This document shows, one piece after another, positions 506 to 63,226 of a DNA stretch of 64,000 bases (position 1 is its first letter; every line of letters begins with the position of its first letter). Below the pieces are notes generated by a model, which searched no databases, was not told the origin of the DNA, and saw only the letters and a list, made by a program, of their open reading frames with translations. Made by a program: the position numbers and the translations under genes. The DNA comes from a virus. The stretch is from the IMG/VR virus record IMGVR_UViG_3300030380_006721, positions 10,690 to 74,689 of that record. One strand, 5' to 3'.

Positions 506-822
506 GTGTCTTCTTCTTCGTTTTTAGCTTTAACAAGTTTGTTCAAAGCGATTTTTTCAGCCGAATTTAGAAGTTTTATACCTGCGTAACCACCGATGAA
601 CGCCACAGCGACTGATTCTGCTTTGGAAAACTGCATTCTGTGAGCAATGGCAGGAGCAATGAAGGTGGCGAGAAGCCATCCAACCGTCATGGCTCGTAAA
701 AAGTGCCTTAGAAAGTACTTTTTGTTTCGCGGGTGAACAAGCGATTCAGTCACAGTACCTGCAATCGAACTACCAGCTAATTCGGCATCAACTACCAACA
801 TAGAGACTAACTTTTCGATCAT
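496..822 (-). CDS. putative holin-like membrane protein
   Basis: 108 aa, 2-3 hydrophobic segments, AFIGGYAG motif, charged C-terminus. Confidence 0.5.
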   Translation of the reverse strand: MIEKLVSMLVVDAELAGSSIAGTVTESLVHPRNKKYFLRHFLRAMTVGWLLATFIAPAIAHRMQFSKAESVAVAFIGGYAGIKLLNSAEKIALNKLVKAKNEEEDTQS

Positions 823-889
823 TAGTCTCTAAAGGCCCGGTGCTATATCAAATATAATCCGGATTAAAGTAGAGTAAAAGCTTCAGAAA

Positions 890-1717
890 ATGACTTTTGC
901 TGCTCTTACCAACTGGAAATACGATAAATCCCTATATCACCGTATTCAATCTGGTCCTCAACACACAGGATCAAATTTAAACTTGATCGATACGTACCTG
1001 CTTACGTCAAGCGGGTATATCTGGAAAGAAGGTGAGCAACAGACATTTGTAGCACTCAGCGATCAAGGTATAAGCTTCGGAACAGTCACTCCGGGTCCGC
1101 CTAACTTATCTGGATTCTTCACAGATGCTTGGAGAGCTGTACCTACTGCAGTTTCAGGCTATTGGACTGATTACACGAATGTATACCCACATTCTTCAGG
1201 TGTTTTAGACGTTTACGACGGTTTTAGGCGTCAAGGTCTTATAAATACTGCCAACAGCACTGTACAGACGGCTTTCGGACCAGAACCTGGCCTGAAAGAC
1301 ATTGGACCATACATTTCTTACGGAAATAACCCACCGGATAATCAGTTTTACAGTCCTTTCGAAACTCCTGAGGGTAATTCGTCTACACAAGGCATAACTG
1401 GCGGCCCTGTTGCATATCCTTTATCTCAGTTTCCTCTTCTGACGAATCCCACACAAGGTACAACAGGATCTAGGGCAGATTGGGTTTACAACACGCCTGT
1501 CTACTGTCAGACGTGGACAGAAGCTGTCACAGCTCGCGTGCCTCCTGGTGAAACCGCTGACGGGACTAATTCAGTCGTTAGGGGTACGTATCGAGGCAGA
1601 TCTACTCGGTATGTTCCAAATTACGGCGGTGTCTATGGAGTTCTTGGCGAAGGTATTAGAGGCATGATCCGCACCTTTAGTTCTACAGTCAACAGTTCAA
1701 ATCAAAAAGGTATTTAA
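890..1717 (+). CDS. virion structural protein (hypothetical)
   Basis: G/T/P/S-rich 275 aa ORF directly upstream of the major capsid gene. Confidence 0.55.
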   Translation: MTFAALTNWKYDKSLYHRIQSGPQHTGSNLNLIDTYLLTSSGYIWKEGEQQTFVALSDQGISFGTVTPGPPNLSGFFTDAWRAVPTAVSGYWTDYTNVYPHSSGVLDVYDGFRRQGLINTANSTVQTAFGPEPGLKDIGPYISYGNNPPDNQFYSPFETPEGNSSTQGITGGPVAYPLSQFPLLTNPTQGTTGSRADWVYNTPVYCQTWTEAVTARVPPGETADGTNSVVRGTYRGRSTRYVPNYGGVYGVLGEGIRGMIRTFSSTVNSSNQKGI

Positions 1718-59426: not shown

Positions 59427-60682
59427 AGTGATGAAATGATGTTTCTTGTGTGAAGTTGTCTTGATACTTGAAGTCATCGTCAGTGGCTTCGCTTACCCAC
59501 TGAGTGAATTGTTCATCGTCATTGATACCTGGCGTCTGTTCAAATACATCTCGGTCATAGACAATCGTGCGTGTGACAATGATGCGTTTGATCTTCTTAG
59601 TCATTGAAATCCTCTAGTGATTGCCTGTGTTGAGTTGTAGAGATTGTCTATGTCTCCGAGATAGCCATCACAGGCGTGGTCCTCGTCATTGGGACAACTA
59701 CCACCGCAATAGCGACATGGTTCTTGTTGTTGTTCAGTGTCAGACATTAAACTCTCTATGTCGTTGCAGAACTCAAGGAGTTTGCACTCAATGCCTTCAA
59801 TCCGATCGACTATGTATCTCGGAGCATCTACATTTCGCAGTAGGTCAGAGATACGACCGAGCTGAATCATTGCCTCACAAGTTTCATTGAATCGATCAGC
59901 ACTGTTCACTGTTCCGCTCTCCTTTCGTCGTAAAGTTTCCATGCTTGATCTGGCGTGGGGTCAGGAACTATGTGGATCAGTTGTTCATTGACCGATGCAA
60001 TCCCTGACCATTTAGCAATAGCTTCGGACAGATCTTTTGCATAGATGTGAGTGAACTCACGCCTATGTTTAGGACCATCGAACCAGAGATAATACAGAGC
60101 GAGAAAGCGATTCATGATCTACCTAAGAATGCATTGATGAGTACAAGTAAAAGAAACAACAACCAAGCAAACAATCGGCGCATCAATCTTCCTCGGGTGA
60201 GTGATTCTCAAGAAACCAATCCTTCACGTTCTTATGAACATGACACTGGCACTCTGTGTATGTATCGAATGAAAGCTTGGTCTGAGGATTAGTGGGAGGC
60301 ATATTGTCCCACATCATGTAGAACATACCACTGTATGGGCACTTGACAAGCACGCCCACACGTAAATCACCTTCACCGATTGGATCAGTTAGGTATACAT
60401 ACTTATATGCTTTGTGTTTGACGTAGCTCGCAGGTTCGACGAAGTCAACATCAATAGTGAGTGGAAGTGTCATGATCAGTCCTCCCATTCCGTGGGGTGA
60501 TACTCAACGTGATAAGTCACAGCGATTGAATCCTCGCGTTGATTCTTCTCAGCCCGAGCCACATTGAATGTGTTACACATATCTAATGCGAGATGAAAAT
60601 CATCGGCTGAGTTATACCAACCTCGGGAAGGTTTACGCCCGAAGTCATGGTGAACAGTTTGAATGATGTTGTACATGATCAC
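59419..60682 (-). CDS. cluster of five small early hypothetical genes (59419-59604, 59601-59942, 59906-60115, 60183-60488, 60476-60682)
   Basis: Tightly packed, mostly coupled short ORFs on one strand. Confidence 0.55.
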
Positions 60683-61017
60683 TGAAAGGTGAAAGAACCG
60701 CAGAAGGGAATGTGTGTAACTTGGTTATCTTTGCCTAGGAAAGTAGTAACAAACCACTCGCCACGTTTCTGATATACAGACTCACCCTCCACACAATGCT
60801 CGCGGATGATTGCATTTAGCCGTGACTTCGTAGTCTTTGTCCGACGACCAGCGTCTGTAACTGTGACGAAGTTATCACCAATGGTGGCGATGTGGTTGCC
60901 GTATAGATATACACGAGAGTGACCAGATTCTTGGTCGAAAGTAACCTCAGTGTTCGCAAGTTTCCAGTTCTTGGAATCACTGATGGCGTTGTTCATAAGG
61001 ATTTCGATGTTACGCAT
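60679..61017 (-). CDS. conserved cyanophage early protein
   Basis: WKLANTEV...VYLYGNHIA...TKTTKSRLNA. Confidence 0.75.
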   Translation of the reverse strand: MRNIEILMNNAISDSKNWKLANTEVTFDQESGHSRVYLYGNHIATIGDNFVTVTDAGRRTKTTKSRLNAIIREHCVEGESVYQKRGEWFVTTFLGKDNQVTHIPFCGSFTFQ

Positions 61018-61145
61018 GTTTGGAATGAACGTAGAACAAAGGATGAGAGACTGAGTCCCTCAGTAAGGCACTATGAATGTTAGTGACTTAGTGAGAGCTT
61101 CATGATCAAAAATGATCTATTGAATAAACAATGAAGACTGAACTA

Positions 61146-61797
61146 TCCCTAGGGTATGTAAGATCTACACCCCCCAGGGAAGAAGTCCAGCTTACTTAGT
61201 GAAACTAAAAATGGTGCATGTAAAGCACACAGTAATACTATGTAAGGGGGGATCTCCCCGTATTTGTACCTAACCGTAAAGCGAACCGGTTCGTTCGATG
61301 ATTACCCTACTAGGGTCCACCGTACTGTTAGATAACTAAGCCTGTAGATACCAAGGGCCTTACTGCGGGCACTAAGTTAATCAAGGAGCGAAAGCCGTAT
61401 TAAGGCAGCTCCGGATACCTAGCGGGACGTGGGCGTTAGTCGAAGTTCCGACTCCACGTCTCTGGCTACCCTGACACTGGGGGGATTGATACCTCAGATC
61501 CAGGTGATAACTAAAGCTAGCAAGGGAAGAGCAGAGCTCACCGCTTGGTTCGATAGTGATCGTTGGAACTGTTGGCTGATGATGTGTTGACTGTAACCGC
61601 AGAAACTGCCGAAAGTGGTAGGAACTTGTGACAGTTTGGCGGCTGGTTTGTCGTCGGTGCTGATCACTAATGGATCGCTCTCCCTTCGACACCATTAAGT
61701 AGATCATGAATCGACACCGAATAGTTGGAATGGTGTGCGGTTTCTCGATTGTCACAGTCTTCTTGATTTGATTCTTAGTTATCGAGAGCTGATCTAA
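61146..61797 (+). ncRNA. candidate large structured non-coding RNA (unassigned family)
   Basis: Contiguous nested helices across ~650 nt with no credible CDS; G-U pairs mostly favour the + strand. Confidence 0.55.
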
Positions 61798-62067
61798 TTA
61801 AAAAAAAGAAACGCGCACCCGCCCACGCGCGTATATAGCACACAGGCGTGGATGATATTTACATTCTGTCATTCAAGTCAGACTAGGGCTTCACATGTGT
61901 ACCCATAATGTATATTTATCTGACCCCGCAATCCGGCCTTTTTTTACTTATTTGACATACACGTCGGCACGGGCGAGAAGGGTCTAGGTATCTTGCGGGT
62001 ATTTTGGGGTCAAATCGTCTGGAGTAGCAATATAATAACAGGCGCAGAAAAAAATTCGGTACGTAAT

Positions 62068-62235
62068 GTGGTACGTAAAAAGTTTTTCCGAGCGTGGGCA
62101 CGAGCACTTGGGCAAAAGGCGTCCACATGCAGTCGTGAAGCTGATCAAGTTGCGTTAATACGCACAGTTATTTTTTTGAGTTACTTGATTACTAACTGCT
62201 TTATCATTGCCGGTGTAATTAGACATTGGAATTAG
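62068..62235 (+). CDS. conserved cyanophage single-TM protein
   Basis: WARALGQKA...EADQVALIRT...ITNCFIIAGVIRHWN. Confidence 0.7.
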   Translation: MVRKKFFRAWARALGQKASTCSREADQVALIRTVIFLSYLITNCFIIAGVIRHWN

Positions 62236-62258
62236 ACTGTTAACAAAGGGCTAGTTAG

Positions 62259-62585
62259 ATGCTTTCGACTGAAGTACGCAAGAAAGCTGAATTTATTTGT
62301 TCCAGAATCGCAGAAAGAGCAGAAGTTCCGGTTTCAGACATGATCTGGATCCAGAAATGGGCAAAAAGCAACCACAGTGTCGAAGCGATGCTTCGTAGAG
62401 CCCGTCGAAGGTCACTGAGGGGAGATCAACCAGCCGAAGGGTTAGACCGTTTTCTTGAAGATATGGACTTAGGTGATCCAGATCCTACTGAACACTTATC
62501 TGGATCACAGACTCCTGTAGAACTCGCTGAGTGGTTTGCCAACAAGAAGAAATGGTTTGTCGACGATGAAGGCTGTAGAGACTAA
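62259..62585 (+). CDS. conserved cyanophage hypothetical protein
   Basis: MLST...EFIC...DMIW...LRRARR...LDRFL..MDLGDPDP. Confidence 0.75.
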   Translation: MLSTEVRKKAEFICSRIAERAEVPVSDMIWIQKWAKSNHSVEAMLRRARRRSLRGDQPAEGLDRFLEDMDLGDPDPTEHLSGSQTPVELAEWFANKKKWFVDDEGCRD

Positions 62586-62617
62586 CTGTATACTTACAGC
62601 GTCTTAGCGGATGCCAC

Positions 62618-63226
62618 GTGGCGGAAAATAAAAAAACGTGTGAGTGCAGGCCATTTGAATATTATTCGTGTGATGATTTTTTTACGGATAAAGAACTTTC
62701 TGAGATTTGGCAGGAGATATATATGGCTTTTGAGAACGGTTGGTTCGTACATGACGAAAAATCTTCTGCCAAAAACTACGAAGGTGAAGTTAAATCCTTT
62801 CGGTTTGCTTACTGGCCTAATGAAATACCGACTTGGAGCGGAAAGAATTCAGCGATCATGAAACATGTATCAAAAATTTTTGGAGAGCATCAATCGAAAT
62901 ATTCAGATAGTTGTTTTGCAGCCAGAAGCATAGATGCGTGCCACAGACACAACTGCGTTGTTAATTACTACCACGATCACGGCATTTATAACCCGCATAT
63001 GGACGATGCGATCCACACGGCAGTTTACTTTTTGAAAACTAATTACGCGGATTTTACGGGCGGCGAGTTTGTTTTGACTGAAATAGACGAAACCATTGAA
63101 TTTAAAAACAACAAAGTGGTGTTATTTCCTTCGCAAGCGGGTCACGGTGTCAAACCCGTGCATTTGAAAGGTAAAGATGCACCGTGGGGTGCAGGAAGGT
63201 TTGCTATAACCCAGTTCATAAGCTAA
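62618..63226 (+). CDS. 2OG-Fe(II) oxygenase, prolyl-4-hydroxylase-like
   Basis: YNPHMD...FTGGEF...LFPS..GHGV...GRFAITQF. Confidence 0.85.
   Translation: MAENKKTCECRPFEYYSCDDFFTDKELSEIWQEIYMAFENGWFVHDEKSSAKNYEGEVKSFRFAYWPNEIPTWSGKNSAIMKHVSKIFGEHQSKYSDSCFAARSIDACHRHNCVVNYYHDHGIYNPHMDDAIHTAVYFLKTNYADFTGGEFVLTEIDETIEFKNNKVVLFPSQAGHGVKPVHLKGKDAPWGAGRFAITQFIS

Follow-up and report, generated by a model that had tools for sequence, protein, structure and literature searches.

In many bacteria and in lambdoid phages, operons are gated by long structured leaders that end in a terminator and an antiterminator. The lambdoid control regions include the P_L-nutL-N leader, the P_R'-qut-tR' region with its 6S RNA, and the put RNAs of HK022. 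To our knowledge, no terminator/antiterminator leader has been described for cyanophages, and the regulation of these phages is poorly understood. Here, we analysed the last 64 kb (bases 10690-74689, hereafter the window) of a 74,689-bp linear IMG/VR record, IMGVR_UViG_3300030380_006721, from an uncultured virus with cyanophage-like genes and an estimated completeness of 92%. Two divergent operons of the window are separated by a gap of ~1050 nt (61018-62067) that is poor in open reading frames (ORFs). We show that this gap holds a structured, conserved, non-coding element without a described family. Our favoured reading, to which we give about an even chance, is that it encodes a long structured leader RNA on the minus strand, with an attenuator-like end, ahead of the leftward operon. 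A first-pass annotation made from the sequence of the window had proposed instead a discrete ~650-nt RNA on the + strand, at 61146-61797.

The likeness to the lambdoid antitermination regions lies in the layout: a phage operon is preceded by a promoter, a structured RNA and one or more intrinsic terminators that the polymerase must pass. The window has candidates for these elements, with a U8-tailed hairpin ~14 nt past the putative promoter and a terminator-like hairpin before the first gene. Unlike the lambdoid regions, the gap has no similarity that we could find to nut boxA/boxB, qut or put, and none was matched by Rfam; nor did we identify a factor like N, Q or LoaP. The leader would also be far longer here (~830 nt) and modular, and the host is presumably a marine cyanobacterium. 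Attenuators and the expression platforms of riboswitches provide the second comparison. One segment of the terminator-like hairpin (Y) is complementary both to its partner in the hairpin (Z) and to an upstream segment (X), and all three change together in the lineage of the window. Unlike these systems, the gap contains no known aptamer, either at Rfam gathering scores or at E-values up to 10, and no conserved leader peptide.

A conserved and non-coding gap

Using P0002, which opens the minus-strand operon, and two conserved DNA motifs as queries, we retrieved 12 related contigs from IMG/VR and the JGI metagenomes. The gap is complete in 10 regions, the window among them, where it measures 1045-1157 nt; three further contigs cover it in part. 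Their alignment shows an almost invariant block at 61874-62050 (13 sequences), conserved blocks on the left and on the right, and a centre where whole modules are replaced between lineages. The module content is a mosaic among relatives, while the overall length is kept. A global RNAalifold analysis of the 13 sequences fails in the centre, because the modules there are not homologous. A blastn search with the gap had no match among 50,697 phage records.

The stretch is non-coding. Its sole ORF of appreciable length, at 61381-61755 on the minus strand (124 aa), lacks a PHROG match, and in L085, the closest relative, it is broken up into short fragments. Six-frame similarities between the gap and its relatives are found in several frames of both strands, which is the mark of conservation at the nucleotide level. 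Protein-coding genes in the gap were rejected on these grounds. ARAGORN detected no tRNA or tmRNA genes in the window. The covariance models of Rfam 15, among which GOLLD, ROOL, riboswitches, ribozymes, group I/II introns, tmRNA, 6S and RNase P, had no match in the whole window at gathering scores. At E-values up to 10, they gave four chance-level matches over 60900-62300 (13.7-19.4 bits, against gathering scores of 50-158). The first-pass annotation had described the stretch as non-coding, free of tRNA and tmRNA and possibly outside the described RNA families, and in this it was correct. A search of the literature for non-coding RNAs of cyanophages returned no relevant work.

The strand that folds

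The structure of the gap is above chance, and its left and central parts prefer the minus strand. The left domain (61018-61250) has a mean z-score of the minimum free energy (MFE) of -6.2 on the minus strand and -3.4 on the plus strand in 10 relatives. RNAalifold gives -24.8 kcal/mol (32 pairs) and -14.4 kcal/mol (23 pairs), respectively, for nine sequences. The minus-strand folds of three divergent members have z-scores of -4.5, -6.1 and -5.9, with none of 200 shuffles as good, and values down to -8 are reached across lineages that are ~40% diverged. Many pairs of this domain are G-U on the minus strand, i.e., A-C on the plus strand. The centre (61236-61500) has single-sequence z-scores near 0 on both strands over ~250 nt; its RNAalifold consensus, from three sequences, is better on the minus strand (-51.9 kcal/mol with 63 pairs, against -42.4 with 58). 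When the whole leader is folded (709-825 nt in 10 relatives), the mean z-score is -4.9 on the minus strand and -3.1 on the plus strand, and the minus strand is better in eight of the 10. The right domain does not share this preference: mean z-scores are about -2.2 on either strand (~61488-61760, 10 relatives), and the RNAalifold consensus of 61575-61752 (10 sequences) is -8.85 kcal/mol on the minus strand and -11.9 on the plus strand.

The first-pass annotation had assigned the RNA to the + strand from its non-Watson-Crick positions, which it took to be mostly G-U on that strand. This holds, as a slight lean, for the right domain only; on the left and in the centre the minus strand is better by RNAalifold. 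Isolated mismatches within hairpins were counted blind to strand: in + orientation, the left half has 20 A-C and 6 G-T mismatches, and the right half has 6 and 10, respectively. The 652 nt that had been called highly structured have, taken alone, a z-score of -1.73 on the + strand (2 of 20 shuffles as good) and of -3.15 on the minus strand. The strand was probably misjudged from by-eye counts of G-U pairs, and only the comparison of both strands across relatives revealed this. A conserved, structured, non-coding element does exist, but its strongest part (61018-61250) lies half outside 61146-61797. No conserved + strand promoter or terminator brackets that interval. We found no evidence for the scaffold, decoy or packaging role suggested for it, and the layout matches a cis-acting leader. 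The proposed strand, extent and role were thus probably wrong.

Compensatory changes

Helices with compensatory changes occur in several parts of the gap. We built a covariance model (R1) from the left domain. It re-found all family members and one distant locus, L011 (E-value of 3e-6), where the left-domain element stands alone directly upstream of a 54%-identical homologue of P0002. It had no further match in the window or in ~70 loci of other cyanophages. The R1 alignment of 12 sequences has 82.6% of its cells paired, compared with 77.3 +/- 0.6 in shuffles and 33-47% when the partners are slid. It has 22 pairs changed on both sides, compared with 11.0 +/- 2.1 in shuffles, and none of 500 shuffles attained the observed value of either statistic; these pair statistics are inflated, since the sequences are related to one another and were aligned by fitting to the structure.

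Three hairpins make up the conserved fold of the left domain on the minus strand. Ha (61204-61232, stem 61232-61214) reads GUGC..GCAC, or GUGCGC..GUGCGC in relatives, and is followed by a U-rich run; the U-rich tails were read from the alignment. As helix 1 of R1, it is 95.5% paired, with five of its six pairs changed on both sides. Hb (61137-61191) is a long irregular hairpin, with 22-30 bp and internal loops in relatives, that recurs in the MFE folds of three divergent relatives. It corresponds to helix 2, with eight pairs changed on both sides, and is rich in G-U on the minus strand: many of its alignment cells would be A-C if the RNA were on the + strand. Hc (61104-61117, helix 3) consists of GAUCA, a 4-nt loop and UGAUC. 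It is 95.8% paired with an invariant stem and a variable loop, i.e., it has no informative variation.

RNase III processing hairpins occur in the early transcripts of T7 and lambda. Hb would resemble them as a long irregular hairpin located upstream of the first gene, in a part of a phage operon transcript that is not translated. It differs from them in being one of many modules, and the likeness that we suggest is one of shape and position rather than of sequence.

The central module (61236-61480, minus strand) comprises hairpins at 61246-61259 and 61424-61462 and a composite stem at 61373-61423 with GGAGC/GCTCC at 61385-61412. It is common to the window, L085 and L090 only, and other modules replace it elsewhere. 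The three sequences show 13 pairs changed on both sides, whichever strand is considered. GGAGC/GCTCC (GGAG/CTCC) becomes GGTG/CACC, inner GCC/GGC becomes GTC/GAC and GCG/CGC, and GGGACGTGG/CCACGTCTC becomes GGGTATGGG/CCCATACCT. Within the 9-bp helix 61424/61454, ACG/CGT changes to TAT/ATA between lineages. The GGGG/CCCC hairpin becomes GAAG/CTTC in L090, as read directly from the gap alignment, since L090 is gapped there in the central RNAalifold alignment.

The right domain (61480-61760) is ambiguous as to strand, and we list it on the minus strand. Its RNAalifold consensus has nine pairs changed on both sides on the + strand and four on the minus strand. It includes a hairpin at 61608-61621 that covaries in four of five pairs, and the hairpin ACACCATT/AATGGTGT (61689-61736), which is conserved and scarcely varies. 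The domain is closed by AAGGGAAGAGC (61522) and GCTCTCCCTT (61677); this closing helix, just 5' of CGACACC, recurs with other sequences in L083, L089 and L086.

All of the complementary segments listed in the first-pass annotation are found where it placed them (among them the inverted repeats I22 and I23 and the GGGG/CCCC hairpin). It had named covariation among homologues from marine viromes as a check, and such covariation was found. Several of its helices covary and ACACCATT/AATGGTGT is conserved, but ACAGTA/TACTGT gains two mismatches in L085.

Other repeats were observed in the gap. Long-range inverted repeats (e.g., 61099-61140 with 61694-769; 61331 with 61774) are not nested. We set them aside, as their conservation was not found and exact 9-/10-nt matches are near the number we estimate by chance. 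A perfect 12-nt palindrome, CGAACCGGTTCG, is located at 61283-61294 in the centre of the window's gap, and at the right end of the gap, just before ATTGGCACA, in L090, L091 and L105. It looks like a mobile module or the binding site of a dimeric protein. The 833 nt at 61018-61850 contain 10 GATC sites, including the pair in ATGATCAAAAATGATC. This amounts to 12 per kb, compared with 4.7 per kb for the remaining window, and is in the top 1.4% of windows of the same size; relatives have 2-10 sites.

The terminator-like end and its alternative pairing

The promoter-distal end of the putative leader is a terminator-like hairpin, H0, identified by a terminator scan on the minus strand. H0 pairs Y with Z (61062-61044) and is followed by UCCUUUGUU (whole element 61035-61062), 26 nt before the ATG of P0002 at 61017. 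It has the sequence expected of an intrinsic terminator, i.e., an 8-pair stem with TCCTTTGTTC, but its U-tract is interrupted and its strength uncertain. As helix 6 of R1 (12 sequences) it is 92.9% paired, with three pairs changed on both sides.

Relatives with a different first gene behind H0 still have the hairpin. There are three of them (L084, L111 and L091), and the first gene of L084 is a 106-aa ORF (811-1131, minus strand). Where the gene differs, so do the 26 nt that separate the ATG from H0. The hairpin is thus kept while the gene and its spacer change, which places a point of cassette exchange right behind H0.

The 5' arm of H0 has a second potential partner. X (CUCUCA, 61097-61092) and Y (UGAGGG, 61062-61057) could form a candidate antiterminator on the minus strand (61057-61097) that encloses a hairpin, H1 (61090-61064). 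The MFE folds of L085, L084, L004, L105 and L111 use X:Y, as do folds of the window and L084. X:Y is 84.4% paired, compared with at most 60% when slid. In the lineage of the window (window and L003) an A to G change in Y is accompanied by matching changes in both X and Z. Both pairings, X:Y and Y:Z, can be read in the sequence. A terminator-like hairpin whose 5' arm may pair upstream instead has the layout of a transcription attenuator.

Short upstream ORFs (uORFs) overlap X and H1 (61080-61103, minus strand). The one of the window has seven codons, AUG-AAG-CUC-UCA-CUA-AGU-CAC-UAA, the one of the L089 group has 20 codons and ends at a UAA in the loop of H0, and the L084 group lacks the AUG. 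Read from the alignment, the start codon, frame and length of the uORFs vary from lineage to lineage, and this lack of conservation makes a leader-peptide mechanism doubtful.

The putative promoter block and the promoter-proximal hairpin

The right end of the gap has other characteristics. Nearly every column of the ~175-nt block at 61874-62050 is identical in the 13 relatives, whereas the neighbouring proteins differ by 10-30%. This block has no folding signal (z-scores of -0.19 on the + strand and +0.35 on the minus strand, and no RNAalifold signal). It contains TTTTTTTACTTATTTGACATA, GGCGAGAAGGGT and GGTATTTTGGGG, as well as a TATAAT (62031-62036) for the + strand operon and the -35 hexamer of the candidate promoter on the minus strand. 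It is probably a divergent promoter/operator or holds other dense DNA-binding sites.

The candidate minus-strand promoter, P_L (61881-61853), consists of TGACTT (61881-61876), a 17-nt spacer and TATCAT (61858-61853), with a predicted start at ~61846. The scanning tool reads it as CTGACT-18-TATCAT, with the -35 hexamer one base to the left, and six relatives have GTGACT-19-TATCAT under a strict rule. P_L matches the sigma-70 consensus, with hexamers and a 16-19-nt spacer kept in relatives. No other promoter-like site was identified when 60500-62700 was scanned, and no other is conserved across relatives in our scan; the scan across relatives found no conserved -35/-10 pair inside the gap on either strand. 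The scans of the window and of the relatives also found no conserved + strand promoter to the left of the element and no + strand terminator to its right. The T-run at 61940-61946 was rejected as a + strand terminator, because the alignment has no consistent stem in relatives.

The terminator scan identified a second candidate on the minus strand, ~14 nt after the predicted start of P_L: a GC-rich 8-bp hairpin (61832-61811) followed by UUUCUUUUUUUU (whole element 61800-61832). Two of its pairs are G-U on the minus strand and would be A-C on the + strand. The U-run is present in the window and L085 only; against the other relatives, the A/T run aligns as an insertion. A 17-nt direct repeat, 82% identical, links this region with the left domain (61829-61845 and 61216-61232, GCGTATATAGCACACAG and GCATGTAAAGCACACAG). 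Its CUGUGUGC motif lies at the predicted start of P_L and in Ha, and the left domain might have a second start site upstream of it, marked by the repeat.

A putative leader with an attenuator-like end

Together, these elements suggest how the gap could control the two operons that diverge from it in this uncultured, cyanophage-like marine virus. Its right end (61874-62050) would act as promoter/operator DNA. From P_L, the region between ~61846 and 61018 would be transcribed on the minus strand toward the leftward operon, giving a modular structured leader of ~830 nt. This transcript would carry ~800 nt of hairpin modules, of which the promoter-distal 200 nt would adopt the very stable conserved fold of Ha, Hb and Hc, and it would end in H0, where transcription may terminate. 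When the 5' arm of H0 pairs upstream instead, polymerase could read through, so that the attenuator layout would decide on entry into the operon. The shuffle control of X:Y is not significant; the switching between the two pairings, and its trigger, are therefore what we infer.

Several results weigh against this reading. Changes on both sides affect only one position of X:Y, and the observed pairing of this helix is attained by 75 of 500 shuffles. We identified no sensor, be it a ligand pocket, a protein site or a conserved leader peptide, and no Rfam aptamer matched. P_L and both terminators are matches to consensus sequences only. The U8 hairpin at 61800-61832 is strongly terminator-like and alone would stop transcription after ~45 nt; hence, the leader would require antitermination, or else the operon has a promoter other than P_L in this virus. 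The right domain leans slightly to the + strand by RNAalifold, and the pair statistics of R1 are inflated, as said above. With these points counted, we see the leader with an attenuator-like end as neither better nor worse than an even call.

Alternative explanations

The minus-strand transcript could also be a free-standing, trans-acting non-coding RNA of ~640-800 nt, running from P_L to the U-run of Ha (~61205) or to H0 (~61040), with incidental read-through into the operon. Both candidate 3' ends indeed have a terminator-like hairpin with a U-rich tail, above-chance structure extends over 700-800 nt in 10 relatives, the length is kept while modules are swapped, and no Rfam family matches. 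Yet Ha has just 4-6 bp, the centre lacks a thermodynamic signal, and L011 has the left domain alone directly upstream of its P0002 homologue. The position upstream of the operon and the alternative pairing at H0 also suit a cis element better. Expression data add little. Four public RNA runs carry small shares of the stretch, as Logan contigs without strand, and three of them may be DNA. In one metatranscriptome, contigs cover 61354-61471, 61686-61927 and 61889-62081 (unstranded, from relatives), at a depth like that of the neighbouring genes; depth that does not exceed theirs is weak evidence against an autonomous RNA. We regard this explanation as unlikely.

The same low probability applies to its most ambitious form, in which the ~0.8-kb transcript would be an autonomous modular large RNA, a new class beside GOLLD and ROOL. 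The swappable centre would tune a function in trans (titration of a host factor, or a replication switch), and the terminator would be a mere 3' end. If true, this would be much more interesting than a regulatory leader. The element resembles GOLLD, ROOL and the phi29 pRNA, to which the first-pass annotation had compared it, in being phage-borne, hundreds of nt long and non-coding, with many conserved helices. The comparison did not hold further: there is no Rfam match, the gap is not next to tRNAs, and neither multi-way junctions nor pseudoknots were demonstrated. Furthermore, the central third is replaced wholesale between relatives, and the position and terminator layout are those of a cis leader.

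Somewhat less probable is a function at the DNA level. The gap could be a replication origin or priming region whose single-stranded DNA folds into hairpins, as in the ssiA/ssiB sites of the RSF1010 oriV, or a set of protein-binding palindromes. Hairpins on the minus strand to the left and on the + strand to the right would lie on the lagging-strand templates of a bidirectional origin, and this is the direction of the observed strand preference, although the lean to the + strand on the right is weak. An operon with replication genes is adjacent. It has perfect palindromes (CGAACCGGTTCG, CCCTAGGG, TGATCA pairs) and a density of 12 GATC per kb, against 4.7 per kb elsewhere, but this enrichment is not common to the relatives, with their 2-10 sites. 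An iteron-type origin would have iterons or repeated boxes, and we found only two-copy short direct repeats, which are expected by chance. There is no AT-rich unwinding stretch besides the A/T runs. The U-tailed terminator-like hairpins and the G-U-rich 25-30-bp Hb are features of RNA.

The ~650-nt RNA of the + strand fares slightly worse, and we consider it improbable, also in the variant where transcripts diverge, the left and central parts being on the minus strand and the right domain serving as the leader of the + strand operon. The right-domain consensus folds somewhat better on the + strand, with G-U pairs on that strand in the hairpin 61608-61621 and its neighbours, and the metatranscriptome contigs bridge 61686-61927 and 61889-62081, but these are unstranded and may include DNA carry-over. 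The z-score of the 652 nt is only -1.73, however, and the left and central parts favour the minus strand. No conserved + strand promoter lies to the left and no + strand terminator to the right, and the A-run with the hairpin at 61800-61832 makes a terminator on the minus strand only.

Finally, a neutral spacer, whose hairpins would be incidental and whose conservation would reflect recent common descent, is very improbable: it accords with the weak single-sequence z-score on the + strand, with the z-scores near 0 of the centre and with the number of exact inverted repeats of at least 9 nt in 1.1 kb (four, for ~2-3 expected by our own estimate, i.e., near chance), but not with compensatory changes above the shuffled and slid controls, with 13 pairs changed on both sides between two central lineages, or with minus-strand z-scores down to -8 in the left domain across lineages ~40% diverged.

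Genomic context

The leftward minus-strand block (38.5-61 kb) encodes a D5-type primase-helicase, a DNA polymerase A, a VWA protein, a MoxR ATPase, P0002 and small genes. P0002 (60679-61017, minus strand, 112 aa, phrog_554) is of unknown function. Together with the flanking small protein P0003 (phrog_507), it has hundreds of homologues in Synechococcus and Prochlorococcus myoviruses. The best tblastn match of the DNA polymerase in the phage database has only 28% identity; hence, the virus has no cultured close relative. On the other side of the gap, the first small gene of the + strand operon (62068-62235, phrog_1679) has a predicted start, its match covering residues 28-80 of an ORF at 61993-62235. 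A tandem direct repeat, AATTCGGTACGT / AATGTGGTACGT, at 62053-62076 spans this start. The GC content of 61001-62000 is 0.46, similar to that of the remaining window.

Implications

If the attenuator-like leader is confirmed, the gap would contain an undescribed conserved structured RNA element of ~0.8 kb, carried by abundant uncultured marine viruses with cyanophage-like genes. The element would sit where the leftward DNA-replication operon is switched on. Modules are swapped while the length and the terminal fold are kept, and the first gene is exchanged behind the terminator. The family would then be a useful case of a regulatory RNA evolving by cassette exchange.

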